Source of the DNA: a virus
Taxonomy: Duplodnaviria > Caudoviricetes
Length of the DNA stretch: 55,951 nucleotides
Virus record (IMG/VR): IMGVR_UViG_3300025828_000030
Coordinates: 1 to 55,951 of that record
Strand: one strand, 5' to 3'
The notes below the pieces were generated by a model. The model did not search any database. It was given only the letters and a program-made list of their open reading frames with translations, and was not told the DNA's origin. Positions 1 to 54,708 of this stretch are shown one piece after another; position 1 is the stretch's first letter, and each line of letters opens with the position of its first letter. A program made the translations under genes and the position numbers.

Positions 1-655
1 TAGGTGGTATTCCTCTTACAGCTATTTCTTGTATACCAACTTCATTGGTAGTAATGATATAAGTTCTTGCACCTGTAAGTGTTTTTAATACCTCTGTTCC
101 AAATGAGCTTACATAACCGTCAGGTGTTTTAAGTAATAATGGTATTCTTCTAACCAAGTTATCTATATCAACCGGTGCACTAGCAATACCTTGGTTTGCT
201 TTTGCTTGTAATATATCTATATTCTGTATAACACCAAGTATAGGCATACCGCCAACATCATTACCTTTTATAACAGTGCCAGTGGTTTTAGGATACTCAC
301 CGTTTGCATTTTCAAACATAGCTAAGACAGATGGTATATATTCAAGAGTAGTGGCAAACACTTCATCACCACCCATGCGATCAGCTTGTGGAAAACCTAT
401 AACCCAACCCACACCTATAGCACCTTCATTTATTAAATCTACTTGTATTTGTGCAAGTGTCCTTCTAGGAAATGGCCAACCTCCTTGTTCTTCAATGTCT
501 TCTTCTGTAATGTTCAAGACAACAAAATTACCAGATGGCTCTGGCGTAGTAACAAAAGCGTCAAATACTTTGAGTTTTAGTATTTCAGTTGGAGTGCTTT
601 GAAATATAAGTGGCAGTGATAATACAACTAATATAGGAAAGATAAGTTTATTCAT
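1..655 (-). CDS. CHASE2-domain adenylate cyclase, N-terminal part (continues across the circular join into 55824..54695; 594 aa in total)
   Basis: Not in the ORF track. ATG at 655 overlaps the FecR stop (ATGA). Manual translation: MNKLIFPILVVLSLPLIFQSTP...VVLNITEEDIEEQGGWPFPRRTLA...DIDNLVRRIPL, carrying CHASE2-type WPxPR and DxxVRRIPL motifs. 655+1130=1785 nt, in frame with the 3' part. Confidence 0.9.
   Translation of the reverse strand, partial: MNKLIFPILVVLSLPLIFQSTPTEILKLKVFDAFVTTPEPSGNFVVLNITEEDIEEQGGWPFPRRTLAQIQVDLINEGAIGVGWVIGFPQADRMGGDEVFATTLEYIPSVLAMFENANGEYPKTTGTVIKGNDVGGMPILGVIQNIDILQAKANQGIASAPVDIDNLVRRIPLLLKTPDGYVSSFGTEVLKTLTGARTYIITTNEVGIQEIAVRGIPP
2..127. repeat. Terminal direct repeat / circular assembly overlap (left copy)
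   Basis: 2-127 is identical to 55826-55951; base 1 (t) differs from 55825 (c). Confidence 0.95.
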
Positions 656-1749
656 TTACTTTGAGTGATTGTAATAACACTATCACTTCCTCCGTTTACT
701 TTGATTGTATTAGAAACACCATCTTGTATCAAAATTACTGTGTAAGCGTTACTACCGTTTAAATCTAATCTTACGCTTTCGCTTACTTGTCTTCTAAGGC
801 TTATTACGTTTCCTGTAATTAAAGTAGTTATTTGTGTATCTGGATCATTACCTATTAAAGTACCAACTATTTGTGTGCTTGTAGCAAGTGCTAATTGATC
901 CTCTTCTTTTTCTACAGCAAGTGCATCTATTACATCTAACAAGTCTTCAAGAAAGTTTACATCTAGGTAATTTATATCTAGCTCAGTAAATTCTAGTTGG
1001 TCTTCGTCCAAAAAGTCTTCTGCTAAATAGTCAATATCTAAGTCGTTAAAATCAAGCAAGCTGTTGGTTTGTGTAATTGTTGTTTCTTCAACCATTATTT
1101 CTTCTTCTTTTGGCGGGCTAACAATCAGCATATTATCTATAAGATCTAGAGTAAGATCCAAAATTACAGGCTTTGTAGGAGATGATTCAAATACACTCAC
1201 AGTCGTTGCTTGATAAGGTTTATTAAGCAAAACAGAACCAGTAGCTGTTACAACCTCTATTTCACCACTAGATAAACCAAATTTATCAGGTAATAAAATG
1301 ATAAGACTACGGCCTAATTCATCCACAGTAGCTGTAAAGTCAGTGCCTCTTATCGCTATATTAGCAGTTGGTGTTTTAAGTTGTATGTTTTGCTTATCTA
1401 TTCTATTTAAGTTGCCTGTTATAAACCTAGCTGTACCTAAACCAAAGGTTAGAGCCATCTTAGACTTTGATGGATCTGGATCGTAAATATATTCGTCAAT
1501 AAGTAATTGTGAGTGTTCTGTAAGTTTTACAGTGGACTCATCAAGGAAGGTAATAGCCATCCTGCCATCTTTTGTTATAGCTTCATCATTGCTTTGTATA
1601 GCAAATTCTAAATTAGCTTCGTATGGCTTATCTCTTAGTATTTGTGCAGAACCTCTAAGCTCAGATATATCTCCTATATCAACAGCCTGTTGAGGTTCCC
1701 CCATCGTTTTGAGTGATACAAATATTACTATTAGAAGTAGTGCTTTCAA
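652..1749 (-). CDS. Exported FecR-domain protein with acidic linker and curlin-like C-terminus
   Basis: N-terminal signal peptide; FecR-type motifs DEAITKDGRMAITFLDESTVKL and LKTPTANIAIRGTDF; D/E-rich linker; ends ILIQDGVSNTIKVNGGSDSVITITQSK. Confidence 0.85.
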   Translation of the reverse strand: MKALLLIVIFVSLKTMGEPQQAVDIGDISELRGSAQILRDKPYEANLEFAIQSNDEAITKDGRMAITFLDESTVKLTEHSQLLIDEYIYDPDPSKSKMALTFGLGTARFITGNLNRIDKQNIQLKTPTANIAIRGTDFTATVDELGRSLIILLPDKFGLSSGEIEVVTATGSVLLNKPYQATTVSVFESSPTKPVILDLTLDLIDNMLIVSPPKEEEIMVEETTITQTNSLLDFNDLDIDYLAEDFLDEDQLEFTELDINYLDVNFLEDLLDVIDALAVEKEEDQLALATSTQIVGTLIGNDPDTQITTLITGNVISLRRQVSESVRLDLNGSNAYTVILIQDGVSNTIKVNGGSDSVITITQSK

Positions 1750-2410
1750 TTTTTAACCAATCCCTAGCCAATGTAGATGCTTGTATGATGTTAAAAGTGT
1801 TACTGCTACCATCAAGATCCATATAAAAATAACCAGAATCAGATGATGTAGTGCCTGCATAACCACTAGCAGTAAAATTCACCACGTTGGAACCACCATT
1901 TATATCTACATAATTAACAGCATTAGCATAGTCAATGTCAAAATCAAACTCGTTTGAACTACCTAAAATAGTCCAATCTAAATCTAAGTAAGATGAATCG
2001 GAGCTTTCAGCAATTTTTAAATCAAACTCATTGCTACTACCTGTTACGTCTACGTATAAGTTTACATAGTCTGAACTTATTAAGCCTGTGCTGTTAAGCA
2101 ATATATCCATAATATTACTATCACCATCAAACTCAAAGAACCCAGTAAAGTTGTCGCCATCGATAGCGTCTGATCTAAATAAGTTGCTTGAACCGATTTG
2201 ATTTATATCTAGCGTCATGCTGACACCATCAAGGTCAAGAGCAGTCATTGTTCCAGAAACAGCTTCCGTACCACCAATAAGGTTGGAACTACCTAGCTGT
2301 TCTAAGTCAATGGATGCACTATTTCCACTCTGGTCTATGTATATTTCATTGTCAGCTGCAACGTGAACAAAAGAAAAAACAAGAAATAAGCACGTAAGTT
2401 TATTCTTCAT
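1679..2410 (-). CDS. Curlin-like (CsgA/CsgB-like) secreted beta-repeat protein
   Basis: Signal peptide ending VAA; repeats IDQSGNS, LEQLGSSN, INQIGSSN, FDGDSN, VTGSSN, ILGSSN, INGGSN, LDGSSN; directly downstream of csgG. Confidence 0.75.
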   Translation of the reverse strand: MKNKLTCLFLVFSFVHVAADNEIYIDQSGNSASIDLEQLGSSNLIGGTEAVSGTMTALDLDGVSMTLDINQIGSSNLFRSDAIDGDNFTGFFEFDGDSNIMDILLNSTGLISSDYVNLYVDVTGSSNEFDLKIAESSDSSYLDLDWTILGSSNEFDFDIDYANAVNYVDINGGSNVVNFTASGYAGTTSSDSGYFYMDLDGSSNTFNIIQASTLARDWLKIESTTSNSNICITQNDGGTSTGC

Positions 2411-3257
2411 TACTCGATTCTACTCCTACTTCTTCTGTTTGTAAAACCCAATACCCCTTGTCGAAACCCTGGTTTATTATCTCAAGAACACCACCCTCAA
2501 TAGCTTTCATTAACGCTATGGTAGACGATTCATTTCTAGCATTGCCTAGCTCTATCTCTACAAGCTCTGTGTCCATTTCAATAAATCTAAATACATCATT
2601 AGTTTTACCATAACTAAATATAGTTTTTTGACTAAGCACCTCTAATAAAACTTCTCCTGTAGCTACAGAAATCATGCGTAGACTTACAGTTATATTATCT
2701 TCTCTATACTGAACACTATTACCAATACCTAAATAACGAGCACCTGATCCACCAGATTCAAGGTTTGCTTCGTATGATATGACCGCACCTTCTATAAGTA
2801 TTCCTGCAAAGAGTAATGGTGCTAGTTGTTTTTTCTTTTCTTCTTCACTAGCAAACTGCTCTCTTGCTGATCTTATAAGCTGTCTTTCTTTAGTTAAATT
2901 ATCCAAACCAACTCTTTCTACAACTCTAAAAAACTGACCATTGCCAGCGTGTTTTAAGGCTCTTATAAGCAAAGCATTAGGTTGTTGAGTAATAGCTGTG
3001 CTAAATAAAGCGAATTCAGAGTTTGATTTACGTTGACCTGTTTGATCTGTAAAAGCCAAAGGATATACTGCAACAACGGGTCTAACTTTTGGTAAAGGTG
3101 CGTTTTTTAATTTATCGGATTGTAGCTCCTGGATAGAAACTATATTGTGTTGTTTAAACCTTTGCTCGTATGTATCTTCAAACTGATCAAATATAGAACA
3201 ACTAGAAAGTAAAAGAACCAATAGGCAAAGTAATCTCGGTGACGTTTCCATCAGCAT
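2400..3257 (-). CDS. csgG: Curli secretion outer-membrane lipoprotein CsgG
   Basis: Lipobox LLLSSC; CsgG motifs VAVY..FTDQTGQRK, FRVVERVGLDNLTKERQLIRS, GGSGARYLGIG, VSLRMISVATGEVL. Confidence 0.93.
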   Translation of the reverse strand: MLMETSPRLLCLLVLLLSSCSIFDQFEDTYEQRFKQHNIVSIQELQSDKLKNAPLPKVRPVVAVYPLAFTDQTGQRKSNSEFALFSTAITQQPNALLIRALKHAGNGQFFRVVERVGLDNLTKERQLIRSAREQFASEEEKKKQLAPLLFAGILIEGAVISYEANLESGGSGARYLGIGNSVQYREDNITVSLRMISVATGEVLLEVLSQKTIFSYGKTNDVFRFIEMDTELVEIELGNARNESSTIALMKAIEGGVLEIINQGFDKGYWVLQTEEVGVESSNEE

Positions 3258-3714
3258 CGGTTATCCGTAATGTAATAAATTGTCCATCAGATGTATATTC
3301 TATAATATTACCTTCAAGTTCTATAGTACCTTCATTTTGTGGTGTTTCGCCAAATAAATTATCTACAAGCTGTCTTGATAATTGTGCATATATTCTAGAT
3401 TCAAGATTTCTTAAAAATCTAGCTAAAGTAGTATTTTCTTTATCTCTTTCTATTTGTTCTTGTAAAGCTTTTATTTCTTCTTTAATTGTAAGCTTTCTTG
3501 TGTATTGTTGGTTCTCTATTGTTAGATAATGACTTGATGTACCAACGCCACTAAAACTTGGTGACTTAAACTTATGTACTATTTGATCTGCTTTTATTTG
3601 TTGCACAAAAATACCACCAAACAATAAAATACCTATAATTGTTACAATTTTAATAACAGTATCCTTTTCGGCTTCTTCTTTTATTGCTTGTTCTCTAGTC
3701 TTTTCTTTGGTCAT
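3202..3714 (-). CDS. csgF: Curli assembly protein CsgF
   Basis: Hydrophobic signal followed by ADQIVHKFKSPSFSG (resembles the CsgF N-terminal FxNPxFGG peptide); LESRIYAQLSRQLVDNLFG; C-terminal TEITLP; directly upstream of csgG. Confidence 0.85.
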   Translation of the reverse strand: MTKEKTREQAIKEEAEKDTVIKIVTIIGILLFGGIFVQQIKADQIVHKFKSPSFSGVGTSSHYLTIENQQYTRKLTIKEEIKALQEQIERDKENTTLARFLRNLESRIYAQLSRQLVDNLFGETPQNEGTIELEGNIIEYTSDGQFITLRITDADGNVTEITLPIGSFTF

Positions 3715-4045
3715 CTCTATCTGCTTTTGCTATTTTAGTGCTATCTATTAATTGTGGCACACCTAATATTGTCTTAATTAGTGTGTCCTGGCGTATAATT
3801 TCATTATCTAAACTACGCACTCTATCTATCAAGGCTACTAAAATACCATGTTGTGAGTCAAGTTTTGTGCCTAGGCGTTCTTCTATGGCTGCTATCTGTG
3901 ATTCTACTTTTTCATCAACAGTGTCTAATTTAGCCTCCATACCGTCTACGATACGTATGACCAACTTGTAAATAAACCAACCAAGTCCAACAGCCGCAGC
4001 TATTGGAAAACCGACTTCTTGAATAACTGTAACTGCTGAATCCAC
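3695..4045 (-). CDS. YvrJ-like single-TM coiled-coil protein (possible holin/anti-holin)
   Basis: N-terminal IQEVGFPIAAAVGLGWFIY TM segment followed by a coiled coil. Confidence 0.55.
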   Translation of the reverse strand: MDSAVTVIQEVGFPIAAAVGLGWFIYKLVIRIVDGMEAKLDTVDEKVESQIAAIEERLGTKLDSQHGILVALIDRVRSLDNEIIRQDTLIKTILGVPQLIDSTKIAKADRDDQRKD

Positions 4046-4839
4046 TATGCAGGAAAAGGTCTTTTTTCTATATAAATAAAATCTATAGCAGCAGATACCG
4101 CAAGATTTGCGTTTGAGCTACTAGCTATGGCTCTTACCTCTAAGTCAGTCTTTTCTGCAAACTTTATTGGATGTTTAAACTCTTGATGAATAATGTCTTG
4201 TGATAAAGCAAACTTATCCTTGACGTTAAAAACTCCGCCCTCTGGTCTTGCTACTAAGGATACTGTACCGTATTTATTAGCCACTTCAGTATTCATGCTA
4301 ATATCAACTTGATGTAAATAGGCGTTATAACCTCTAGGTACAGTCCAAAAACACATAAGCGTTTGATTATCACCTACAGCTATAGTGCCGTATTTATTAG
4401 CTGGTACGCCAGAACTTACTGTACCTGTACCTGCATATATAACTCCAGCGTTTTGACCACCAGATCCTGCTGTATCAACAACCATTCTAAATACTCTTAA
4501 AAAAGATTGAGTAGTATTAACTGCTGTTTGACCGTTCAAAGTAACGGATTCGCTTATCTCGTCATAGTTAGCATCAAGACCGTTAATAGTTATAGTCCTT
4601 GCACCAGTTCCTGCTGATGTATCATTTGCTGAAGAGCTAGATATTTTTAAAACTGTAGCGGAGGTTAAGTAACTATATAAACCACCTTCAGCCCATACGG
4701 TTTCTAAAGAATCGTCTATATCAGCATTAAAACCAAACTTAAATTGTGTTTTATGAAAAGCAACCTGCCCTCTTGATACTTGTAGTTCAAAAGGTTCTGT
4801 TGTGCCAACTCTAGATATTGATGAAACTTCTTGAGCCAT
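4045..4839 (-). CDS. Conserved phage protein, probably structural
   Basis: 264 aa, beta/Gly/Thr-rich, coupled to neighbours in the late operon. Confidence 0.55.
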   Translation of the reverse strand: MAQEVSSISRVGTTEPFELQVSRGQVAFHKTQFKFGFNADIDDSLETVWAEGGLYSYLTSATVLKISSSSANDTSAGTGARTITINGLDANYDEISESVTLNGQTAVNTTQSFLRVFRMVVDTAGSGGQNAGVIYAGTGTVSSGVPANKYGTIAVGDNQTLMCFWTVPRGYNAYLHQVDISMNTEVANKYGTVSLVARPEGGVFNVKDKFALSQDIIHQEFKHPIKFAEKTDLEVRAIASSSNANLAVSAAIDFIYIEKRPFPA

Positions 4840-5219
4840 TAATAATCACCCCAAACTTTAGTTTTAGTGCCACCATGATATTCAACTGCGTGACCTTCTT
4901 TGATAAGCATTTGGCATATATCTTTACCATCTTCAGTATATGGTATACCTAGTATGCGACCATACTTGCCTTTACCTAAAGATTTAATTTTAAATTTACC
5001 TGTGCAAAGTTCTTTGAGTCTTTCTTTTGCGGCTAGGCCTAATTTTTTTTCTGCTAAATCCCTGGTTCTTGACTCTGGTGTATCTATGCCGTGTAGACGA
5101 ACACGTTGTTTGTGTAGTTTTACGTCAAAGCCTAGATCGAGACAGCAATCAAAAGTATCACCGTCTACGATCCTTTCTAATGTTGCGTTATAAACAAACG
5201 CATCAGGAGATTTAGCCAC
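4839..5219 (-). CDS. Thermonuclease (staphylococcal nuclease-like)
   Basis: SNase motifs IVDGDT, RVRLHGIDTPE, KYGRILG; no signal peptide. Confidence 0.88.
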   Translation of the reverse strand: MAKSPDAFVYNATLERIVDGDTFDCCLDLGFDVKLHKQRVRLHGIDTPESRTRDLAEKKLGLAAKERLKELCTGKFKIKSLGKGKYGRILGIPYTEDGKDICQMLIKEGHAVEYHGGTKTKVWGDY

Positions 5220-5388
5220 TGTTGTCAGTAAAGCTTTTCTTTTTCTTTACTCTTTTAGTGGTATATGCTTCGTTAACATTTGGTGTAGATTTATCATCTG
5301 CAACGTAATGTCCTTTTTTGTTCCTGGCTCTTACTTTTACTTTTTCGGTGCCAGTAACTTTATCCCATAATTTTGCAAAAATACCCAT
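5212..5388 (-). CDS. Small basic phage protein (58 aa)
   Basis: Manual translation MGIFAKLWDKVTGTEKVKVRARNKKGHYVADDKSTPNVNEAY...; fills the gap between neighbours. Confidence 0.75.
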   Translation of the reverse strand: MGIFAKLWDKVTGTEKVKVRARNKKGHYVADDKSTPNVNEAYTTKRVKKKKSFTDNSG

Positions 5389-5389
5389 A

Positions 5390-5551
5390 CTAGTTACCCT
5401 TGTCTTTTGCTTTTAAAATGTTAAGAGCTAATAAATCTATAAATTTATACAGCTTACCAATCCAAGCATCATCTTTGGGTGTAGGAGTTGTTGCTGCAAC
5501 TATAGAAGCAACTGTGACAATAGTGGTTACCCACATAATTATATCTGCCAT
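5390..5551 (-). CDS. Small membrane protein (53 aa, possible holin-like)
   Basis: Manual translation MADIIMWVTTIVTVASIVAATTPTPKDDAWIGKLYKFIDLLALNILKAKDKGN; TAATG coupling to the upstream ORF. Confidence 0.75.
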   Translation of the reverse strand: MADIIMWVTTIVTVASIVAATTPTPKDDAWIGKLYKFIDLLALNILKAKDKGN

Positions 5552-5745
5552 TATTCATCTTCCTCTGGTTGTGGATCTTCTGTAAGATCCTGGGTTTCTT
5601 CTGGCTCAGCAAACTCTTTGAGTTGCTCAACCACCTCTTTTCTTAAAATAGCAACGCCTTCTAATTCATCACCATTCCAAGAACCTCTTTTAGTTGCTAC
5701 GTCAATAAGTTGTAACATACCTAATAAAAATTGTTTCTTCTCCAT
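5551..5745 (-). CDS. Hypothetical protein
   Basis: AGGAG RBS upstream; 64 aa with acidic tail. Confidence 0.7.
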   Translation of the reverse strand: MEKKQFLLGMLQLIDVATKRGSWNGDELEGVAILRKEVVEQLKEFAEPEETQDLTEDPQPEEDE

Positions 5746-5774
5746 TTTTTTCTCCTTTTTTTATATTATTAAAA

Positions 5775-6122
5775 TTAACTACCTATAGTCTTAGTAACGC
5801 TTGTTGGTGTGATGATTTCAGCTATCTTTGCATCTAATACTGCTTTTTTTTCTGCAACATCATCAGCTCCAAAAACTCCTTCAACCCAGCTTTGTACGTC
5901 AGAAGCTGTCAAATCTGCAAAAGCTGTAAAGCTTGAAATGTCTGAAGTATCTAAATCACAAGTCCCGTATGAAGTAGCAGTAATGTTGTTGCCATCAGCA
6001 TCCTGATTAGCATCGTCTTCTGCTGTTAATCTCCAATGCACGTTATAAACAACGTCTGCATTACCATCTAGTGTTGGGTATGTATCAACTGTTGAAACGT
6101 TCCAAGTATAATTAATTGCCAT
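5775..6122 (-). CDS. Tail-fibre-associated small protein (putative chaperone)
   Basis: 115 aa downstream of the tail fibre; YTW..VVYNVHWRL motif. Confidence 0.6.
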   Translation of the reverse strand: MAINYTWNVSTVDTYPTLDGNADVVYNVHWRLTAEDDANQDADGNNITATSYGTCDLDTSDISSFTAFADLTASDVQSWVEGVFGADDVAEKKAVLDAKIAEIITPTSVTKTIGS

Positions 6123-6124
6123 TT

Positions 6125-6418
6125 TTATTCTCCTGTGTTTTCGTTAGCGTTTCTTTTTGCAGTTTTAACTGCGTCTGTCCAAACTGTTGAAGCTATGCCC
6201 TGAACCTCTGTAGACTCTCCTGATACGTCTGTATCTGTATGAGTCCAAGTATCGTCATCATTCTTTACAGAGCTTACACATTCTAATGCGTGTCTATGAA
6301 AAGACCTACTAAGCTCTACGCCATCTTCTTTGATGACTGTAGCTGTTCTTACTTGTATAGTTTTGTAGTCTCCTACAACTTCTATTTTATCTTCTATTAT
6401 TTCTTTTGTTATTGCCAT
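6125..6418 (-). CDS. Tail-fibre-associated protein (putative chaperone)
   Basis: Start at MAITKE (6418) after an AAGGAG RBS is preferred to the ORF-track start; DKIEVV..IQVRTATVIKEDGVELSRSFHRH. Confidence 0.65.
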   Translation of the reverse strand: MAITKEIIEDKIEVVGDYKTIQVRTATVIKEDGVELSRSFHRHALECVSSVKNDDDTWTHTDTDVSGESTEVQGIASTVWTDAVKTAKRNANENTGE

Positions 6419-6472
6419 TCTATTTTCTCCTTTGTCCGTACCTAGCATCCACTAGGTATATTAGTTAAATTG

Positions 6473-9169
6473 TTATGTTGTTGTATAAGTTCCTGCAATA
6501 TTAATATAGTTATCATTAGCACCAGTTTGTGCATCTGCAACTGCTATTGTTGTTGTGCCATCTCTATACAAATTAATATATGCTGATGTTTCATGTACTC
6601 TAGCTGAAGTAGGGTTGTTAGCAGCATTCCAATTTGAACCAAATGTTACAGAAACAGCAGTATATTGGTCAGTTCCTGCTCCTGATACAGTAGCGGGTGT
6701 AAAAGGTAATCCACCAATTACAACTCCACCTGAAGCTGAACCTGCTGTAATTGCATCTGTAACTACTGTTAATTGAAAATGCACTAAACGACCAACTTTA
6801 GTATAAGAACCACCTGTTCTTGCATCATAAGTAACGCTTGTAAAATCTGTACCATCAGTTGTTAATGTAGGAGTAAAACTACCTTCTTCATAATCGTCAA
6901 GAACATTACCACTTGCATAAGCATCAAATTTAATGCCTAAACCTGCACCCATTTTAATGCCGTCACCATCAGTGCTGAATCTTGAAGATGTTATATCGCC
7001 TGAAAGGTAGAGGTCTTTAAATCTAACACCTGAATTTCCTAAATCAACTGCTGCATCTCTACTAGCACCTGTTGTACTATTCCAAGGAGTAATATTATCT
7101 AAATCACCTGCAATTAAAAGACCAGCATCACCGCTTCCTATATTTAATCTTGAGCTATTAGTACCAATACTTCCAACTGTTGTGCCGTCTTTGCGGAAAT
7201 CTACAATAGTTCCATCGCCATTTTGTCTGTTGAGATACATTAAAGTTCTGTTGTTTGCAGAAAATTGAGATTCTCCTGTAGGCTCAAATACCATTCCATA
7301 TTCATCAGAACTATCATTATATAAAGTTGTATCAGTAGTACCCACCAACAAGTTGCCTGATGAGTCTATTCTCATGGCTTCATCTGTGTCTACAAAAAAT
7401 TGCATACTAGAACCACCTTGAGCATTACCACCATCAGCTCTTATTTGCAAAACTCCGTTAGCACTAACAAACTGTGAATATGTTGAAGGAGATGAAGAAT
7501 CAGTCATACGGAAATTACAAGTACCATTTTCACTAACTTGAAGATTTACACCAGGATTACTCGTTCCAATTCCAACGTTGCCTGATGAGTCTATGGTCAT
7601 GCGGTCTACGGCAGCATTAGAATCTCTGAAAGCTAACGCTGTTGAGCCTGTAGTATGTCCTCTAAATCCAATCGTGGCTTTCGTATCTTTCTCAATACGT
7701 ATATCGCCATTTTCAATATGAAGTTTTGCAACAGGCGAATCAGTTCCAATTCCAACGTTTCCTGATGAGTCTATACGCATGTGTTCTGAAGTACCGTCTC
7801 CAAAAGCTAGTTGTTCACCAAAGAATGTATTTAATTGCCATGTTGGATTTGCAACACTTAAATCAGAACATACAATTTGAAAGCCACCACCTCCGCCTGA
7901 TGATGTTCTAAAAAGCGATTGATTAGTACCAGAGCTTCCACCTGCTACATGTAAAGGAACACTAGGACTAGTCGTTCCGATTCCAAGCGATTCAGCACTA
8001 GCATCCCAGTATAGAGCTTGAGTTGTGCCTGTATCTTCGTAGAAGGAGATGTCTCCGTTTTGAGCAACTTTTAAATGATTAACACCATCGGTCGCTAAAT
8101 ATAAGTCAGCCGTGTCAATAGCTTTAGCATCTATAGTAAATGCGGCGGCAGAAGCTGCGCTGTTTCCACCACTTAATTTATATGAGCCTGTGCCTAATGT
8201 TCTAAAAGAAACACCTCTAGTGGCACTTCCTAAATCTGTATCACCATCAACAAAAAGCCCATCAAAAGTTGGAGTTCCTGCAACGTTTAAACCTGTAAGC
8301 GTACCAACACTTGTAATATTAGGTTGAGCTGCTGTAGCTAGTGTACCTGTTATGTTTCCTGAAGATTGTATAGTACCTGTAATGTTTATGTTACCTGTAC
8401 CTGTTATATCGCTTGAACTTAAACTTATATCTGTACCACCTGTAGTGTTACCATTAGCAAGGATCTCGGCTAATGTATCTACTGTTCCTACCTGGCTATC
8501 TACATAGGCTTTGATGGATTCAGAAGTAGCAACTGTTGTAGCTGATGCTGTACCAAATGTATCGTCATCAATAAAGTTTGCAATATTAATGCTGCCATCT
8601 GATAAAGTACCAAAAGTAACTGTGCCTGTTGTTGTAATAGCTGATGAGCCATTATCTATAGATCCAAAACCTGATGTAATTGATCCACCATTCAATGCAC
8701 CTACGCTTGTTATGTTGGTTTGTGCAGGATCTGTAACTTTTAAATTGATAAAAGCATCTACAATAGCCGCACCTGAACCTGCTCCGTCTGAATAAACTAC
8801 TTTTACGTCCCCGTTAGGTATAGTTACGTTTGACCCGCTACCCTGGGATATATTAATTGATTGAGATCCAGATGTTGCATTTTCTATAATCCAGATTTTT
8901 GATACGGTATTAGGTGCAATAGTAAGAGTTCTGGTTGCTGTTAAACTAGCACCAGAAGTTACTTTTAAATATAAACTTCTAGCTGGATCCGTTGCACCGT
9001 CAGCTATAGTTGTTGTTGCATCTGCATCTGAGCTGAATGAAGCCTCAGTACCGTAACTAAATGCTTCTGCTATTAACTCTAAATTTGTGTTTGTAGATGC
9101 CCCCCAAGTTCCTGACTCGTCGCCTGTGGCTATTTCTTTTAACCTTAAATCATTTACGTATGTTGCCAT
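6473..9169 (-). CDS. Tail fibre protein
   Basis: 898 aa, G/S/T-rich; N-terminal TGDESGTWG..TNTNLELI; repeated RIDSSGNVGIGT; C-terminal LDDYEEGSFTP..YTKVGRLV domain. Confidence 0.9.
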   Translation of the reverse strand: MATYVNDLRLKEIATGDESGTWGASTNTNLELIAEAFSYGTEASFSSDADATTTIADGATDPARSLYLKVTSGASLTATRTLTIAPNTVSKIWIIENATSGSQSINISQGSGSNVTIPNGDVKVVYSDGAGSGAAIVDAFINLKVTDPAQTNITSVGALNGGSITSGFGSIDNGSSAITTTGTVTFGTLSDGSINIANFIDDDTFGTASATTVATSESIKAYVDSQVGTVDTLAEILANGNTTGGTDISLSSSDITGTGNINITGTIQSSGNITGTLATAAQPNITSVGTLTGLNVAGTPTFDGLFVDGDTDLGSATRGVSFRTLGTGSYKLSGGNSAASAAAFTIDAKAIDTADLYLATDGVNHLKVAQNGDISFYEDTGTTQALYWDASAESLGIGTTSPSVPLHVAGGSSGTNQSLFRTSSGGGGGFQIVCSDLSVANPTWQLNTFFGEQLAFGDGTSEHMRIDSSGNVGIGTDSPVAKLHIENGDIRIEKDTKATIGFRGHTTGSTALAFRDSNAAVDRMTIDSSGNVGIGTSNPGVNLQVSENGTCNFRMTDSSSPSTYSQFVSANGVLQIRADGGNAQGGSSMQFFVDTDEAMRIDSSGNLLVGTTDTTLYNDSSDEYGMVFEPTGESQFSANNRTLMYLNRQNGDGTIVDFRKDGTTVGSIGTNSSRLNIGSGDAGLLIAGDLDNITPWNSTTGASRDAAVDLGNSGVRFKDLYLSGDITSSRFSTDGDGIKMGAGLGIKFDAYASGNVLDDYEEGSFTPTLTTDGTDFTSVTYDARTGGSYTKVGRLVHFQLTVVTDAITAGSASGGVVIGGLPFTPATVSGAGTDQYTAVSVTFGSNWNAANNPTSARVHETSAYINLYRDGTTTIAVADAQTGANDNYINIAGTYTTT

Positions 9170-32293: not shown

Positions 32294-32479
32294 TTAATGC
32301 CTCTCCATGCGAGCTGGTATAACAACTTCCCAGTTGCATTGATCACAACAACGACCATTGTTTACAGGTTGTGCGTTATTACCTTGATCCCAAACCACCT
32401 CACCAACAGAATTACGCAATGGCTTGATATGTCCATTACAGATACTGCATCTTACCTTATCTAACTCAACTATCAGCAT
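32294..32479 (-). CDS. Small Zn-binding protein
   Basis: CSIC..GNNAQPV..GRCCDQCN. Confidence 0.7.
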   Translation of the reverse strand: MLIVELDKVRCSICNGHIKPLRNSVGEVVWDQGNNAQPVNNGRCCDQCNWEVVIPARMERH

Positions 32480-33659
32480 AATCCATCTCCTTTAATATGT
32501 GCTTGATAACCTCAACAGTCCAACCATTACCCAACATCTTGTATCTTTGCGTGTTTGATACATGGTTTGTATAGTTATCTGGAACTGTTTGCAGTCTTTC
32601 ACACTCTAAAGGCGTTAGTTTACGCCAATGCAGTTCATCAACACTGTCCCATTCATGTCTATCATAAGATCCTCTACCACCAGATCTAACTGTTTTAGAC
32701 TTAGATCTAATCTTAGATTCCTCTACTACAACACTATCTTTGCTTACTGTTGTAAGTGCGTTTGTCTTATTATCCTTTCGCAGTTCTAACATTTGTGTTG
32801 TTTTACCTGCAACTGAATCGCCAAATCTATCCATACGCTTACCATCTTTATCATAAGCTCTACCAACAATACGGCCACCAGTCACGACTTTCGGCTCACG
32901 ATTACCACCTTGGCAAGTGTTTACTGTAGGAGACTTACCATCTGGACTATAGACTCGTTTGAGTATGTCATGGCCATTTATGTCTGTAGCTGTTCCTATC
33001 TGCAATGGTTTATTTACTAACTGTCTTCGGTATTTATCTTTGTAATGATGTGGTTTTGCACCTGTTTTAGAGTAATTAGCATCAATACAATAGCTTTTGT
33101 CTCTATCACTATCGTAGTTATCTTCAAGAATATCTCTTAAAACTATGCCTTTATCCTCTGGTTGCTGTATTCCTGGAATGTTTGTCCAGTAATATCTTTG
33201 CCTTGACTGAGCAGATACAAGAGAACTGTTGATAAATATCGGCTCTATACCAAACATTATCTCTGGATAACATTCTGATACTTGCTCAGATATAACCTGT
33301 AAGTATTCTTTCTTCATTCTTACATTCTCTAATAAGAAATACTTTGGTTTGATTGCTTTGAGTAATCGTATGAACTCAAAGAACAATGCTGATCTAGGAT
33401 CATCAAAAGCAAGTTGTTTACCAGCAAAACTAAATCCCTGGCATGGTGAACCGGCAAGTATTAGATCTATGTCTTTGTAATCTTCTGGATCTAAGTCGCA
33501 AACATCTCCAACATGGATAGTATCTGGATAGTTTGCCTGTGCAACCTGGATAGCATACTTATCTATCTCACTTGCATAATATTTGTCTACAGGTATGCCA
33601 AGTTGATCCAATGCAATACGACCACAAGACATACCATCAAATAGACTTAGAACTTTCAC
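32466..33659 (-). CDS. DNA (cytosine-5) methyltransferase
   Basis: Motifs LSLFDGMSCG, GSPCQGFS, LLENV, QSRQRYYW, ERLQT, KMLGNGW. Confidence 0.93.
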   Translation of the reverse strand: MKVLSLFDGMSCGRIALDQLGIPVDKYYASEIDKYAIQVAQANYPDTIHVGDVCDLDPEDYKDIDLILAGSPCQGFSFAGKQLAFDDPRSALFFEFIRLLKAIKPKYFLLENVRMKKEYLQVISEQVSECYPEIMFGIEPIFINSSLVSAQSRQRYYWTNIPGIQQPEDKGIVLRDILEDNYDSDRDKSYCIDANYSKTGAKPHHYKDKYRRQLVNKPLQIGTATDINGHDILKRVYSPDGKSPTVNTCQGGNREPKVVTGGRIVGRAYDKDGKRMDRFGDSVAGKTTQMLELRKDNKTNALTTVSKDSVVVEESKIRSKSKTVRSGGRGSYDRHEWDSVDELHWRKLTPLECERLQTVPDNYTNHVSNTQRYKMLGNGWTVEVIKHILKEMDYADS

Positions 33660-42979: not shown

Positions 42980-44949
42980 TATAAATCTATATCTATTACA
43001 GAGGAGTTACCTGTTACTCCTGATGTTGTACCAGTGACACCTTCAGCAGGTTGACCGCTTATGATTCTTAATATGCTTTCAAGATAAGGACTAAGTGCCT
43101 GTATACCCACTCCTTGATAAGAAGGATTTTGTATTATTGAATACTTACCTTCAATAATTCTTTTCTTGTCTTCGTTGTTTCTAATTAGGTTAGCCCTAGC
43201 ATTTGCCAGTTTTTTCCTAATTTCTTTAGGATCACCAGTTAAATCTAATTCACCAAATACCTTGTCTACTATTTCTCTATCTAAGTTAGATATGGTTCTA
43301 CCAGACTCATTAAGTATTTCTCTAATGCTTCTTTGTTTTACTTGGTCAATATAGTTTTGTATTTTTGTAGAATCACTAACATTTGTATCTGTTGCACCCA
43401 TGAATGCTTTTAGTTTATCTACACCTCTAACTGCGTATCCTGGTAGACCTGTAATAGGCACACCGTCTTTAATAGCAGCATCAAATAAATCTATAGCTGA
43501 GTTCATAATATCTATAGATGCTTCTGTACCTTCGTAATCTTTTACAGTTGTACTTATTTCAGTTATGTCTGTTTGTAATGCACCTAGCTCTGATGGTTTT
43601 AATCCTGTACCACTGCTACCTTGATTTTTAACTTTCTGTACAGCTATTGCCATAGCAAGATCTCTTTGATATTTTTTCTCTTCTTGCTCTTTGAGTAACT
43701 CTCTTGCAGTTCTTTCCTCTGCAGCTTTTGCAGCTCCAGTAGCAAGTCCTTCACCCATTTGTCCAGTAGCAACAAGTTGTCCACCAACATTTCTAATAAA
43801 GTCTAAGAATCTATCAGAGCCAAACAAACCAGTAGTTTCTTTTGGTACTACAGGTATTCTAGCTGTATTCCTAGTTTCTTCATCTTCTTCTGTGACTGTG
43901 GTATCTACTTTGATAAGGTCTGGTTTTTCTATTTCAAAAGTACCATCAAATTTAGCTTGTGTATCTGCTATGGTATCAGCCTCTGATCTATCTATATCTA
44001 TCTTCATTTCTGCTGGTAAAATTTCTTTGATAGCTTGAGTTATTTCATCATCTTGTTCTAGTCTGCCAGTTGGTAAAGGATCTCCAAATTCATCTCTACC
44101 TATTAAGGATTTTTCATATTCCATTCTTCTAGCTTCAAGATCAAAACCACCAACTGTTCCTGGTGCATAAACTTGTCCTAATGTTTCACTTTCTGTTTTA
44201 GGTACAAGAACAGGATCAGGCAATAAGTCTTTATCTGTTGGTATTTCGTCTACAGGTATAGGATCTACTGAAGCAACTTCAGGTTCTGGTGCTTTTATTT
44301 CCTTTATCTCATTAGAGAAGTCTTGTATGTCACCGACACCTGATCTTGATAAAACATCAATCAAAGTTTTTTGTGGTATACCTTGTCTTAACATACCACC
44401 CCTATCATAGACATCTAAGAGGTCATAATCACTTGCAGCACCAGTTATAGTCTCTGTGCTGAAAGGCATTCTTTCACCGCCAATACCACCTGGATAAATA
44501 TCACTTGGAGTAAATCCTTCTTCCATTCTTTTTTTACCACCTTCTCCTAAACCTAAACCAAGTTTATTGAAAAGGTTAATGCCACTTTCGACAGTTCCAA
44601 TGGCACCTTGGGTTAAAGCACCTCCAAGATCTCTAAATCCTGCTCTAGCTGTTAAGTAGTCAGGTAACTGTTGACCAAATTTAAACGTATTTGGATCAAC
44701 GCTAGAAATACCGCTTTGTTTCTCATAAACAATTTTCCTTAATATTTCCTGTGTGGCTGGGCTATAAGTAACATCGGGATTTTGTACGAAGCTTGTAATG
44801 GTAAAAGCATCTGATCTACTTAAATCATTGTAAAGTTTTTCTGGGTCAATAAAAGTTTTGGTATTATTAATTTTATCAATGAAGTAGTAACGATTATCTA
44901 CAGTAGCTTCTCCTCCAGCTTGAAACATTTTACGATTTAAAAAGTTCAT
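42979..44949 (-). CDS. Internal virion/ejection protein
   Basis: 656 aa; N-terminal LNRKMFQAGG; C-terminal GRTISNLDRE. Confidence 0.6.
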   Translation of the reverse strand: MNFLNRKMFQAGGEATVDNRYYFIDKINNTKTFIDPEKLYNDLSRSDAFTITSFVQNPDVTYSPATQEILRKIVYEKQSGISSVDPNTFKFGQQLPDYLTARAGFRDLGGALTQGAIGTVESGINLFNKLGLGLGEGGKKRMEEGFTPSDIYPGGIGGERMPFSTETITGAASDYDLLDVYDRGGMLRQGIPQKTLIDVLSRSGVGDIQDFSNEIKEIKAPEPEVASVDPIPVDEIPTDKDLLPDPVLVPKTESETLGQVYAPGTVGGFDLEARRMEYEKSLIGRDEFGDPLPTGRLEQDDEITQAIKEILPAEMKIDIDRSEADTIADTQAKFDGTFEIEKPDLIKVDTTVTEEDEETRNTARIPVVPKETTGLFGSDRFLDFIRNVGGQLVATGQMGEGLATGAAKAAEERTARELLKEQEEKKYQRDLAMAIAVQKVKNQGSSGTGLKPSELGALQTDITEISTTVKDYEGTEASIDIMNSAIDLFDAAIKDGVPITGLPGYAVRGVDKLKAFMGATDTNVSDSTKIQNYIDQVKQRSIREILNESGRTISNLDREIVDKVFGELDLTGDPKEIRKKLANARANLIRNNEDKKRIIEGKYSIIQNPSYQGVGIQALSPYLESILRIISGQPAEGVTGTTSGVTGNSSVIDIDL

Positions 44950-47900
44950 TATCCTTGTCCCTGCCTTGGAGCCAAAGCACCATAAGCACTAAATGCAGCA
45001 CCAAGTCCTGCAGCTGATGGATCTGTTGGTAATCCGTATTGTGAACCAATCTGTGTACTACCTTGTTGATAACCTGGTAACATTGAACCTATTTGACCTA
45101 GGACACCTAATGGTCTTTCTTGCTGTCGTAACATTTGCTGGTATATTCTTGATAAGCCAGTCTCAGCAATACCTCTGCCAACACCACCAAATCCAGCTAG
45201 CTCGCCTCTTTGACCAGCTCTAAGCCCTTCTTGAGTTGAACCTATACCACCTATTTGACTACCATATCCAGCTAGTTGTTGACCTAATTGTGATGCAGCA
45301 CTACCTCTACCTACACCAATGCCCATAAGTCCTTGTGCACCGGTTCTCTTAGCTGCTTGCTGTCTTGCAAACTCACTCATACCTGTGCTTTGTGCTTCAC
45401 TAAATCCTCTTTGTCTAATAGCACCTAATGCTTGTGCTAGGCCTTCACCTAAAGCTTCTTGACGTTCCATAGCACCTAACCTAGCTCTACTACCACCAAA
45501 AGCACCAGCACTTATCTCACGGGCTCTAGAAGCTATATCTTGCTTCTCACCTGCTTCCATGACATCTTGTATAGTTTTGTCTACTACTGCTTGTTCAAAC
45601 GGGTTATAGAACTGCTGTGTCATGCTTGGGTCATAAGCACCCATAGTATCTTTATATATCTCTTCAGCTTGTGTGTAATAAGGATCTTGTAGTTCTTCAG
45701 CACGTCTTGATTGTGCGATAGCTTGTTCTACTAAGTCTCTGTTTTGTTGTAAGAATGGTTCAAAGCCACCAAGACCAGCTACTGCTTGTTGTCTTGCTAA
45801 TAGCTCTAATGGTGTTAAGCCTGCTGTTTGTTGTAATGGTACGTCTTGACCAATAAGGTTAGCACCAGCTTGTTGTAGCTGTTGATAGAATCCTGGTTGA
45901 TCTGCTGTACCAAAGTATAAAGCTCTTACTAATGGATCAGTAAGATTTTCTTGTGATGTTTGACCAAGTAATACAGGATCCAATGCTCCCACAGGCATAG
46001 GTTGGGGTTGAACCTCACCATCCGCTGCAGACGGTGTAGGAGCAGTGGTAACTGGGTCAGTTGTTGGTGCTGGGTTTGCTATAAGACCAGCAGCAGGATT
46101 AGGTGGTGGATTGATGCCTTGGTTACCTCGAAATTGTAAACCTTCAATATTTGTTCTTGGATCTGATATTCCAATTCTGTCAAAATAATCTTTATCAAAA
46201 ACTTCTTGTCCTGTTGTTGCTACAAAATCATCTAATCTAGGATCTGATGGTCTGTCATCAATAAATAGTTGGTCGTCTCTTTTTGGTGGTAATAAGTCTG
46301 CTTTTGTAGGACCTGTTGGTGGAGTAATCATACCACCAGTTACTTGATCAAATCCTCTTTGTGGTGGTACAAAACGGTCAACATCAATACGGTCACGCAA
46401 GCTGCCAGGACCTTTATTTTCTATATTTTTTACAAAATCTGGAGGAGTTACACCTGCTGGACCGATAATTCTTCCATCTGGTCCACGAATCTCTGTTGGT
46501 CTTATGCCTGGACCAAATCCAAAGTCTTGTGGTGGTATTGGTCTTATTGGCACTGGTCCACCAGGAGGTAAAGCTGGACCACCTCTTACTGGTCTTGGAC
46601 CTTGTATCATGCTTTCTGGTTTTGTAACAGATAACACATTTTGTTGATAGCTTTCCATAGCTGCTGGATTTGCATCTAAATATTCTTTAAGACTGTTTCT
46701 ATATCTAATGTCTGTAGAAGATCCTGTTTTTTGTTCTCCTGTAATCGGGTCTATATACATTCTTATATCCATCGTTCCTATTTGTGGACGTTGTGGTGCA
46801 TCAGGAAAAGCAGCTCTAAAAGCATCACCACCAGCTCTTAGCTGGTTGCTGTATTCAGTTCTAGCATTTCTATCTGCTACAACACCTGGATCTTCTGTAA
46901 TTGGTGTTACTTGAGGCAGCCTACCACCACCAATACCTCCTATTGACATAGGTGGTTCGGGTCTTCTTATAGGTAATCTATCCATAGGCTCTATTGGTTG
47001 TGGTTCAGGTAAAGTATAATCGTTTTCAAGTGGTGATGGTTCTGGTTGAGCTGGTGTTTGTAATTCACTTAATCTTTGCTCAAGTTCCTGTAATCTGTTT
47101 TGTAAAACACTTGGATCAAAAGCAGGTATGTTTCTGCTCTCTAACGCAGTCAATCTTTTTTGTAAATTGCTTGGATCAAAAGGATTTGAAGGTTGTGGGA
47201 TATCTATACCACCTCTTATATCCTCTATAAGTTTCTGCCTATCAAATGCAGGGGGTGTTGGTAATTCACTTCTTATATCACGTAATAAAGACTCTCTATC
47301 AAACTCTGGTATCTTGATACCGCCTCTTATATCTTCTATAAGTTTTTCCCTATCAAAAGAAGGAGGTTTTGGTATATCAATACCGCTTCTTATATCTTTT
47401 ATTAGAGCATCTCTGTCAAACCTAGGTATGTCTATACCACTACGTATGTCTTTAATTAAAGCTTCTCTATCTATAGAAGGAGGTTTTGGTATGTCTATAC
47501 CAGACCTAATATCTTCAATAAGTGCATCTCTATCAAAAACGGGAGGCTTAGGCGATACATCTATGCTTCCTCGCATTTTATCTAAAATCTCTTTTTCAAA
47601 AGCTTCTTTGTCAAAAGTTGGTATATCTTCTTTTCTTGCAAACCCACTTAAATCAGGAGCTTTATACTCAGGCATTTGTATACCTTCTCTAGCTATAGAT
47701 AAAAAGTCTTCTCTAAAGTCTCTTGGATCAAATTTAGGTAGATCACCAGCAGTTAAAAACTTGCTTGTATCTATTTGTGGTAAATCTTCTAATCGTGCAA
47801 AACCAGATAAGTCTGGAGCTTTGTATTCAGGTATATTAAGGTTGTCCAATCTATCTCTTAAACCAGCAATTCCAGATTGTAAGTTAGACGGATCAAATGT

Positions 47901-49208: not shown

Positions 49209-50512
49209 TAGGCTTGCCCTATCTTATTAAACTGCTCAAAAGTTTTCATAAGTTTATCCATGTTCTGAGCACCTTTTTGTCTGTCAGGTTTACCATTTGG
49301 TATAAGTTCTATGCCAGTTTCTGTTTTTGTTACTTTGAACCCACCTAAACCATTGTTTGCAGCAGATGTCATAACAAACTCACCATCGCTTAACATAGCA
49401 GGTATATCATCACTTGTGCCTGTTCCAGGACCAATGCTAGGACCACCACCACGCATATCTAACTCGTTAGCCATTGCAGATCTACCCATAGCAAATCTAG
49501 GTCGTTCTTGTAATCCACCCATAGCTGCTTGTTTTCTAATACCTAAGTCAAAGCCTGTAAACGTAGGAGCTGGCATTAGATCTGGTCTAACAGACTGTCT
49601 AATATCTCTCATGCCACCTTCTCTGTCTTTGTAGGATTCTTTAACTGCTTTACCATAAAGTCCTGCTAATCCCATGAGTGGCAACATACCGCCTAACCCA
49701 CCTCCGCTAGATTGACCTCCAAAAAAACTACCAAAAGGTGATCCCATTCCAGCATTAGCCATTTGTGTTAACTGTGCATATGCTTGTGGGTTTGCTGCAA
49801 TTTGTGCAGGTGTCATACTTGCCAATGCTTGTTGTGCTTGTTGGGCTGTTTGAGATGCAGTTATTTGTCCTGGTGTTCCACTGCCAAAACCAAATCTATT
49901 AGCTAAACCTTTTCCAGCAGCAGGTCCGCCTGCATAAGTAGATCCAGTTTTTCCAAACATACCACCAGCCAAAGGATTAGTTAATCCGCCCATAATCCCA
50001 CCAAAACCACCTGCTGTGCCACCTGCTATAGATGAAATACCAGGTATGCCAAGACCAGCAAGACCACTTGCTGCACTAGAAGCTAAACCACCTATACCGC
50101 TTGCAACACCACCTAAACCTGGTATTTTGCTTAAACCACTAACAACTCCTCCACCAAGCCCTCCAAGAACTCCACCTAAAGCTGTACCAACTCCAGGTAT
50201 AAATGCAGCAACTGGAGCTACTTTTTTAACTACTTTACCAATAGACTTAAATGTTTTCTTTAACCAACCAAACTCAGCCATACCCGTAATAGGGTTGATA
50301 GACATACCATCACCAACAGTATATTCGTTAGGATCAAGCCCTACTGCCATCATTTCTTTTTTAATTATTTCTTGCGTTTGTGGAGAGATAACTGGTGGGA
50401 CTACCATTTCTCCTGGTGCTACGTGGGCAAGCATAGTATCCTCTCCTCTTCCTAAACCTGCTATACCTTTACCTGAGTTGTCTATTCTATTCATGCTCAA
50501 ATCATTCCTCAT
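49208..50512 (-). CDS. Gly-rich internal virion protein
   Basis: GRGEDTMLAHVAPGE, INPITGMAEF, GPGTGTSDDIPAMLSDGEFV. Confidence 0.7.
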   Translation of the reverse strand: MRNDLSMNRIDNSGKGIAGLGRGEDTMLAHVAPGEMVVPPVISPQTQEIIKKEMMAVGLDPNEYTVGDGMSINPITGMAEFGWLKKTFKSIGKVVKKVAPVAAFIPGVGTALGGVLGGLGGGVVSGLSKIPGLGGVASGIGGLASSAASGLAGLGIPGISSIAGGTAGGFGGIMGGLTNPLAGGMFGKTGSTYAGGPAAGKGLANRFGFGSGTPGQITASQTAQQAQQALASMTPAQIAANPQAYAQLTQMANAGMGSPFGSFFGGQSSGGGLGGMLPLMGLAGLYGKAVKESYKDREGGMRDIRQSVRPDLMPAPTFTGFDLGIRKQAAMGGLQERPRFAMGRSAMANELDMRGGGPSIGPGTGTSDDIPAMLSDGEFVMTSAANNGLGGFKVTKTETGIELIPNGKPDRQKGAQNMDKLMKTFEQFNKIGQA

Positions 50513-53397: not shown

Positions 53398-53399
53398 GG

Positions 53400-53843: not shown

Positions 53844-53844
53844 A

Positions 53845-54529: not shown

Positions 54530-54708
54530 ACGAATCTAGATAAGACTACAGATAGCAGAATAAATGGATATACAGCCCATATCATGTTTTCAAGCTTATC
54601 AAAGCGTTTTGAACCATCATCTAACCTTTTTTCTATATTAGCGTATCTAATACTGCACTCTCTTTCATGTGCTTCGATTTTTGTTATTGCTTCCTTAGTT
54701 GTTGCCAT
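54526..54708 (-). CDS. Small coiled-coil/C-terminal TM protein (XhlA/holin-like)
   Basis: HERECSIRY..RFDKLENMIW followed by a TM segment. Confidence 0.6.
   Translation of the reverse strand: MATTKEAITKIEAHERECSIRYANIEKRLDDGSKRFDKLENMIWAVYPFILLSVVLSRFV

Follow-up and report, generated by a model that had tools for sequence, protein, structure and literature searches.

A pelagiphage curli-type secretion cassette joined to a FecR-fold protein and a CHASE2 receptor adenylate cyclase: a plausible trans-envelope signalling system

SAR11 phages are among the most abundant marine viruses, and genes of a curli-type secretion pathway have been described in some of them. CsgF and CsgG, together with three linked genes, were reported in pelagimyophages (Zaragoza-Solas et al. 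2020, PMC7029224), and for the pore of phage Melnitz a possible part in timing lysis was considered (Buchholz et al. 2022, PMC9004378). The only paper that our literature search found to unite CsgG, phage, adenylate cyclase (AC) and FecR (Wittmers et al. 2022, PMC9599517) describes a viral type VIII secretion system (T8SS) cluster in the order HK (histidine kinase), CsgF, CsgG, CsgA/B, FecR, often a second CsgA/B, and AC, carried by nine HTVC023P-type Podoviridae genomes and by pelagimyophages. Its authors proposed a model for the cellular localisation of the products, detected the genes in metatranscriptomes for their own genomes, found cassette genes at all 65 GOV2.0 stations and put its share of the viral proteins assembled from ocean viromes at about 0.1%; they argued for an alphaproteobacterial origin followed by transfer between viral families, and stated that FecR and AC lie outside bacterial T8SS operons. 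What is said here of these papers, and of two others cited below, refers to the accessible parts of their text. We analysed the complete IMG/VR record IMGVR_UViG_3300025828_000030 (55,951 nt, hereafter the window), in which a cassette of this kind is interrupted by the contig ends. Its central genes and the repeat that joins the ends are as follows.

Positions 3202-3714, minus strand: CsgF homologue, 170 aa (PF10614, 6.3e-18, residues 30-164; phrog_35372, 2.3e-46)
Positions 2400-3257, minus strand: CsgG homologue, 285 aa, putative outer-membrane lipoprotein pore (PF03783, 2.4e-46)
Positions 1679-2410, minus strand: putative curlin-type secreted beta-solenoid subunit, 243 aa (Curlin_rpt in its family, all-beta model)
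Positions 652-1749, minus strand: FecR-like open reading frame (ORF) (PF04773, 8.8e-10, residues 59-144)
Positions 2-655, minus strand: N-terminal 218 aa of the cyclase, with the first transmembrane (TM) helix and most of the CHASE2 domain (PF05226, 9.3e-18; TM 1-23)
Positions 54695-55951, minus strand: cyclase residues 177-594, with the end of CHASE2, the TM block and the class III domain (PF00211, Guanylate_cyc, 2.4e-19)
Positions 2-127 and 55826-55951, no strand: terminal repeat of 126 nt (family D7, two copies, 100% identical, spacing 55824)

The first-pass annotation had described five overlapping minus-strand genes, the last of them a 594-aa cyclase wrapping around the contig end, and this description is correct: all five ORFs are present, Pfam bears out the domain calls, and the two cyclase pieces share 42 aa through the 126-nt repeat, giving a full length of 594 aa. 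Because bases 2-127 are identical to 55826-55951, the genome unit is 55,824 bp, base 1 falling outside the repeat, and the gene split between the contig ends can be followed from one end into the other. The export signals or TM helices attributed to each product were also found: CsgF, CsgG and the cyclase have a hydrophobic N-terminus or a TM segment, and the curlin-like and FecR-like proteins begin with a signal-like stretch.

The window encodes a portal, a large terminase, a tail fibre, a primase and virion proteins. Its portal is 46% identical to that of 023Pt_psg01, 48% to that of Pelagibacter phage HTVC027P and 47% to that of HTVC023P, which places the phage, as judged from sequence, as a distant member of the HTVC023P-type SAR11 podoviruses. 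With CsgF, CsgG, curlin, FecR and AC co-located and co-oriented in an HTVC023P-type genome, the window agrees with the published T8SS-FecR-AC description in phage group, gene set and order, and its cassette is almost certainly a further example of the viral type VIII secretion (curli) cassette already described from pelagiphages. It differs in having one curlin gene, with none between FecR and cyclase, a comparison with the nine genomes of PMC9599517 that rests on the text of that paper. The composition is thus already known, from the very lineage in which the window lies; the earlier statement that no characterised podovirus system of this composition was known holds as regards characterisation, there being no experiment, and fails as regards description (Wittmers et al. 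2022). The earlier mention of csgF and csgG in Melnitz and HTVC008M was likewise accurate: tblastn with FecR, cyclase and CsgG gave matches in Pelagibacter phage HTVC008M (KC465899) and in four isolates of Methylophilales phage Melnitz (MZ577097), in the order CsgF, CsgG, curlin-repeat, FecR, second curlin-repeat, cyclase. These share the gene order, with proteins 33-47% identical and p116-like genes upstream; they differ from the window in being T4-like myoviruses, in the second curlin-repeat gene between FecR and cyclase, and in a cassette that is not beside lysis genes.

The accessible text of PMC9599517 names CHASE2 nowhere, treats FecR as an iron regulator and calls the upstream gene a histidine kinase. 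What may be new here is of secondary weight: that the cyclase is of the CHASE2 type and regularly paired with FecR in bacteria, that a bacterium has the entire cassette in its chromosome, that FecR has a curlin-like tail specific to the cassette, and that the label 'HK' is unsupported. The window itself is one more carrier, from which nothing new follows.

The cassette is about 5.7 kb of a 55.8-kb genome. An IMG/VR search with the FecR protein gave 598 candidate stretches, at least 594 of which encode a relative, and the counts of IMG/VR loci given here refer to the best 80 of these (FecR identity 81-97%). The gene order of the window is kept in 80/80, as far as the contigs reach and at 47-99% protein identity, and the five genes from CsgF to cyclase are all present in 61. 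A curlin match between FecR and cyclase was found in none of the 80 podovirus-type loci. Two of these have gaps at that place, of about 350 nt (L051) and about 200 nt (L053). Three others (L004-L006) are 99% identical to the window in CsgG, 97% in FecR, 88% in CsgF and just 77-79% in the cyclase, an unevenness that suggests recombination inside the cassette. At L031:3049-4682 the cyclase is split across two overlapping frames, by a frameshift or a sequencing error.

Two bacterial modules make up the cassette: a secretion module (CsgG, CsgF and one curlin subunit) and a sensor module (a FecR-fold protein and a CHASE2 cyclase). In the secretion module, CsgG matches the E. coli CsgG chains (E 5e-47) over residues 49-275, an alignment that covers the entire mature domain. 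The N-terminal segment closes with LLSSC, which we take to be a lipobox. The stretch opposite E. coli KPYP-ASNFST, the segment that forms the pore constriction there, is altered and one residue longer. CsgF scores 65.6 bits against a PF10614 cut-off of 25.8 and has a hydrophobic segment at residues 17-42; phmmer against solved chains found no CsgF chain.

The third product of the module has a short, signal-like N-terminus that is conserved among homologues. Of 12 members of its family, 9 match Curlin_rpt at E <= 1, with 1.4e-7 as the best value, and the Melnitz homologue exceeds the cut-off; the window protein itself reaches 0.028 and 14.8 bits, below the cut-off of 20.7. In a six-frame search of the genome the same gene was the sole Curlin_rpt match (2.1e-4, below cut-off). 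Its AlphaFold2 model is all-beta (predicted local distance difference test, pLDDT, 78), and a wide structural search placed Pontibacter CsgA (8c50_A; Z 16.7, 23% identity, 194 residues, root-mean-square deviation 9.0) at the top rank, which it shares with SufBD-type beta-helices; the family profile run against solved chains gave at best 0.015, to an unrelated protein. We read this protein as a divergent curlin-type solenoid. Compared with E. coli curli (CsgG/CsgF/CsgE, CsgA/CsgB), the window thus has CsgG, the CsgF family and a repeat beta-solenoid subunit; it differs in the changed constriction-aligned stretch, in a subunit distant from CsgA in sequence, in having no identified nucleator and in CsgE, for which PF10627 found no match in the phage at E <= 0.1. 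The earlier remark that csgC, csgD and csgE are not visible thus stands for CsgE; CsgC and CsgD were not searched for. Alphaproteobacterial curli systems are also described as being without CsgE (PMC9599517).

The cyclase has the layout of a CHASE2 sensor: a TM helix at 1-23 precedes the CHASE2 domain, and a hydrophobic block spanning residues ~287-341 stands before the catalytic domain. On the C-terminal piece PF05226 scores slightly under the cut-off (2.6e-5, 24.4 bits), and the full CHASE2 domain of the homologue at locus L088, introduced below, reaches 1.5e-37. The closest solved relatives are 6fht, 2w01 and CyaB (3r5g). D415, K455, D459, D527, N536 and R540 are all present, in the motifs FTD, IDK, IGD, RFDY, VN and AARLES; from the class III literature we take D415 and D459 to bind metal, K455 and D527 to define the substrate, and N536 and R540 to stabilise the transition state, and we presume that the Lys and Asp pair confers adenylate specificity. 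In this regard, 6fht, an adenylate cyclase fusion, has K where the near-identical 2w01 has E. Across the cassette cyclases compared, the D, K, D and R positions are invariant (14/14), the specificity Asp is kept in 11/14 and the Asn in 12/14. The window enzyme is accordingly predicted to be a CHASE2 receptor adenylate cyclase in which all six catalytic and specificity positions are intact.

Between the two membranes, the mechanism proposed below assigns the connecting role to the FecR-like protein. Its start is uncertain, being either the TTG at 1749 or an ATG 15 codons downstream, where the Atlas record begins. A signal-like N-terminus, which all homologues share, directly precedes the FecR domain, and three parts follow.

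Positions 1150-1674, minus strand: FecR-fold domain, residues ~26-200 (PF04773; pLDDT mostly 72-88, with a dip at 41-50)
Positions 862-1122, minus strand: acidic linker, residues ~210-296, ~85 residues (pLDDT < 50)
Positions 655-861, minus strand: C-terminal extension, residues ~297-365, ~70 residues, with a possible curlin-like repeat at its end (hhalign; found in cassettes only)

Foldseek matched the domain to the anti-sigma factor 4m0h (2.1e-5) and to the PupR cell-surface signalling domain 6ovk_R (8.4e-5), with probability 1.00. The linker, rich in D/E and L and of conserved length across homologues, is probably disordered. The extension is present in all 10 cassette-type loci and in none of the 70 other bacterial FecR loci of the scan described below, in which the match never passes residue 236. 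By hhalign it resembles two repeats, the final one of the curlin-like family (score 24.8, P 0.0017) and one of the second-curlin family of myophages (score 30.4, P 0.00025), a family that exceeds the Pfam Curlin_rpt cut-off. In 100 column shuffles the scores stayed well below these values (maxima 17.8 and 16.4), and the control alignments gave P 0.65 for the FecR domain and P 0.52 for the linker; an ESM Atlas look-up with the C-terminal 81 residues returned no usable match. Since the aligned stretch is short and its fold uncertain, the likeness of the tail to a curlin repeat is suggestive and not proof.

To place the sensor module among bacteria, we scanned 185,579 species genomes for the FecR family, which gave 391 relatives; the bacterial-set counts refer to the best 80 of these 391. 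Ten of the 80 match FecR well beyond the domain, to residue 326-364 (for L086 to 224, where the contig ends), and in the remaining 70 the match is limited to the domain. A CHASE2 and/or cyclase match lies within 9 kb in 21 of these 70 loci; a single ORF unites the two domains in 18 of the 21, and in 11 no more than 100 nt separate the match from the FecR gene. Among the carriers are Alphaproteobacteria, Myxococcota, Omnitrophota, Elusimicrobiota, Planctomycetota and Kiritimatiellota. With the window proteins as queries, CsgG, CsgF, curlin and p116 were found at none of the 70 loci. By gene neighbourhood, FecR and a CHASE2 cyclase are thus a bacterial pair that is common without curli genes. 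A FecR-CHASE2 association has been reported for Campylobacterota cyclases (PMC9239204), and FecR stands beside CHASE2 kinases in the Burkholderia BiofilmReg operon (PMC5192318). In so far as the accessible text of these papers goes, the likeness lies in an exported FecR-domain protein encoded beside a CHASE2 membrane sensor; bacterial pairs differ from the window in having no CsgG, CsgF or curlin (0/70) and a FecR without the C-terminal extension, and their output may be a kinase. Our literature search found no paper treating both CHASE2 and CsgG.

Two of the 10 loci with a longer FecR match, L087 and L088, lie on contigs of 32 and 83 kb in Caulobacteraceae metagenome-assembled genomes (MAGs) and carry CsgF, CsgG, two curlin genes, FecR and a CHASE2 cyclase. 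L088 is flanked by cellular genes, among them those for methylmalonyl-CoA mutase, acyl-CoA dehydrogenase, amidohydrolase and TetR; among the eight flank ORFs scanned, the sole PHROG match was a metallophosphoesterase (2.1e-7). The flanks of L087 gave no match to phage ORFs and were not scanned for families. The L088 cassette has a GC content of ~50%, vs 55-61% in the outer flanks, and its FecR, used as query against 301 genomes of its order, found a full-length match in its own genome only, with two domain-only matches. A complete cassette, FecR and cyclase included, thus sits in a bacterial chromosome in two Caulobacteraceae MAGs. It resembles the cassette of the window in its CsgF, CsgG and curlin-type genes, its CHASE2 cyclase and a full-length FecR with the extension (40% identity to the window FecR over residues 19-363); it differs in the two curlin genes before FecR, the absence of p116 and, at L088, the metabolic genes on either side.

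The other eight longer matches were rejected as bacterial carriers. Seven (L084-L086 and L089-L092) are phage contigs in MAG bins, with podovirus- or myophage-like flanks and p116, the flanks in one case being both ends of one 60.8-kb contig. L093, from a Polynucleobacter bin, was dismissed as a third bacterial carrier on its flanks, where Hsp20, ClpS, heme oxygenase, bilin reductase and radical SAM genes have PHROG matches; these are presumably typical T4-like phage auxiliary genes.

In a tree of 35 cyclases, with hand-chosen rows and the window represented by its C-terminal piece alone, the cassette cyclases (10 podovirus-type, 5 myophage-type and 2 from Caulobacteraceae) formed one clade with support of 100/100, and 18 bacterial FecR-adjacent cyclases fell outside it. 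The Caulobacteraceae pair joined the podovirus group at just 87/72, so that the tree is too weak to tell donor from recipient.

These observations can be joined into a mechanism, which as a whole we hold tentatively, at even odds or somewhat less. Late in infection, the cassette genes would be made together with the downstream lysis genes. CsgG and CsgF would insert into the outer membrane and export the curlin subunit, while the FecR-fold protein would remain in the periplasm as a co-sensor of the CHASE2 domain, a partnership suggested because the gene neighbourhood of its bacterial relatives implies pairing. Through its acidic linker and curlin-like C-terminal repeat, FecR would tell the cyclase what state the pore or fibre is in, and the cyclase would set the cAMP level of the infected cell. 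Signalling across the envelope is plausible in that it fits the FecR fold, the 21 of 70 bacterial FecR loci with CHASE2 or cyclase and the curlin-like extension. A curli-type exporter joined to a FecR-CHASE2 receptor cyclase is also a model definite enough to be put to the test in E. coli; it bears on CHASE2, a sensor family whose signals are unknown, and the bacterial copy allows the same test in a cell.

Several observations weigh against this mechanism. On its own, the curlin-like protein of the window matches no Pfam family at E <= 0.01, and Foldseek of its model against the PDB gave no match at E <= 0.001. Neither CsgE nor a separate CsgB-type nucleator was identified in the phage, so fibre assembly itself is inferred. 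The C-terminal part of FecR is modelled with low confidence (pLDDT < 50), and its likeness to curlin rests on 43-50 aligned residues. The phage encodes no cyclic nucleotide (cNMP)-binding protein. In the cyclases of L090 and L092, which are of myophage type, the specificity Asp is replaced by S or G and the Asn by S, so that cAMP may not be the output in every carrier; the remaining four positions are retained, and the product may differ or the enzyme be impaired. RNA for this genome amounts to a single 260-nt contig, from the seawater library X20, at 1959-2218 within the curlin gene (1 mismatch), a weak hint; runs X21 and X23 gave just fragments of 35-62 nt at 90-95% likeness, from relatives, which together is too little to claim transcription of the window genome. 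A complex prediction with CHASE2 residues 22-286 and FecR residues 22-215 (the L004 pair) scored 0.00 on 14-row alignments without controls, and points neither way.

A bolder form of the same mechanism makes FecR a tether through the envelope: its domain would hold CHASE2, its linker would enter or cross the CsgG/CsgF pore, and its repeat would template or cap the fibre in place of CsgB/CsgE. If so, cAMP would be a direct readout of how the fibre grows or is loaded or how far the pore is occupied, and the cassette would be a self-contained bacterial surface-amyloid sensing system, as in the Caulobacteraceae chromosomes, captured whole by at least two phage families. We regard this as a long shot.

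According to another explanation, the fibre itself is the purpose, a curli-like coat on the infected cell serving aggregation or shielding ('sibling capture' or a superinfection shield), with cyclase and FecR regulating it or acting on the host independently. This was proposed in PMC7029224 and PMC9599517, and CsgG, CsgF and a putative curlin-type subunit are indeed all present and intact. However, no clumping was seen with Melnitz in cytograms or transmission electron microscopy (Buchholz et al. 2022), and a coat leaves unexplained why FecR and cyclase travel with the pore, in the 61 complete IMG/VR loci as in the bacterial copy, and why FecR has an extension specific to the cassette. Taken as the full account it seems to us rather unlikely; it is compatible with the signalling mechanism that we favour.

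The role in lysis timing suggested by Buchholz et al. (PMC9004378), in which the pore, made of CsgG or CsgGF, would have become a gated channel helping to trigger or time lysis, brings in the neighbouring genes. The minus-strand order is p264, p116, CsgF, CsgG, curlin-like, FecR, cyclase, p60, two spanins and endolysin; to judge from the coordinates, each gene overlaps its successor from p264 through endolysin. The members of this run outside the five genes listed above are the following.

Positions 4045-4839, minus strand: p264, ORF at the head of the overlapping run
Positions 3695-4045, minus strand: p116, predicted single-pass membrane protein with a coiled-coil tail, 116 aa (TM at 11-33; phrog_18771, 7.4e-16)
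Positions 54526-54708, minus strand: p60, with a C-terminal TM segment
Positions 54134-54529, minus strand: Rz-like spanin (PHROG; phrog_739, 5.3e-16)
Positions 53845-54216, minus strand: lipoprotein spanin (PHROG; phrog_812, 2e-11)
Positions 53400-53906, minus strand: endolysin (PHROG; phrog_7, 1.2e-66)

The cassette thus continues without a gap into the lysis genes, the cyclase gene overlapping that of the small membrane protein p60, which two spanins and the endolysin follow, and an endolysin lies 3' of the cyclase in 52 of the 80 IMG/VR loci (gap 423-1193 nt). This arrangement speaks for lysis timing, as does the altered CsgG stretch, which aligns with the constriction segment of the E. 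coli pore. It is not general, however, since the cassette is not beside lysis genes in HTVC008M or Melnitz and there are none by the bacterial copy. CsgG is an outer-membrane pore, and as such cannot depolarise the inner membrane; moreover, the window already has a complete set of spanins and endolysin. We consider this explanation improbable. Promoter scans of 1-6500 and 53000-55951 gave counts no higher than in shuffles, and terminator scans of the same regions found none that was convincing inside the cassette, so that operon boundaries cannot be drawn.

A part in iron or nutrient uptake, in which FecR would be a regulator of the ferric-citrate type and CsgG would serve for import, was suggested in PMC9599517 and agrees with the Pfam name of the domain. 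The likeness to FecIRA/PupR cell-surface signalling is, however, one of periplasmic domain fold: the protein consists of the periplasmic FecR fold alone behind a signal-like N-terminus, with no cytoplasmic anti-sigma part, and the phage has no match at E <= 0.1 to an extracytoplasmic function (ECF) sigma factor (PF04542) or to the STN domain (PF07660) of a TonB-dependent transducer. For want of these three components the iron-regulator explanation fails, and the bacterial relatives of this FecR pair with CHASE2 cyclases; we give it hardly any weight. Just as little credit can be given to the cassette being passenger DNA with no role in infection, which the lack of curli genes in the host clade (PMC9004378, PMC9599517) might suggest, given intact ORFs in one order in 80/80 loci at 47-99% protein identity, catalytic D, K, D and R invariant in 14/14 cassette cyclases, exact pieces of the window in one marine run from a different study, and some 5.7 kb of the genome given over to it.

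The gene p116, which precedes csgF, is the sixth conserved gene of the phage cassette. It was detected in one copy in 49 of the 80 IMG/VR loci, in two copies in 6 and in none in 25, and it does not occur in the bacterial cassettes L087 and L088. Its position and its one-or-two copy number suggest that it is probably the 'HK' of PMC9599517. None of 13 members of its family has a histidine-kinase domain in Pfam at E <= 1, whereas a histidine kinase would have HisKA and HATPase_c, so that the name 'HK' is unsupported, if p116 is that gene. Weak YvrJ-like matches were seen in 7 of the 13.

As to the genome as a whole, CheckV puts its completeness at 100%, and IMG/VR classes the record as 'linear, no end repeats' despite its exact direct terminal repeat. 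Its GC content is 35-42%, no tRNA gene was found in it, and blastn of bases 1-3800 against the phage collection gave no match. Sequencing runs from 14 studies, whose labels are freshwater, marine or seawater metagenome, contain near-identical DNA, and two of the runs may be its source; for positions 1-4100, a fraction of 0.48-0.99 of the sampled words is present in runs labelled freshwater and marine/seawater metagenome.

A few further genes deserve mention. In HTVC008M, the second curlin-repeat protein (L003:7064-8389) also has a PA14 domain (2.7e-6), a domain that is often carbohydrate-binding, and L092 has, between the second curlin gene and the cyclase, an ORF (L092:5767-6321) similar to the 20-kDa subunit of NADH-quinone oxidoreductase (PF01058, 1.1e-28). 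In the window, a 2OG-Fe(II) oxygenase lies at 50502-51209 (phrog_61, 3.2e-31) and a DNA methyltransferase at 32466-33659 (phrog_116, 1.7e-75), genes of types listed among the auxiliary genes of HTVC023P-type phages (PMC9599517). A 1419-aa ORF at 44949-49208, whose sole PHROG match is a weak one to a head-tail adaptor, contains several internal direct-repeat families with units of 63-140 nt at 47.2-49.1 kb, and is probably a repetitive internal virion or tail protein.

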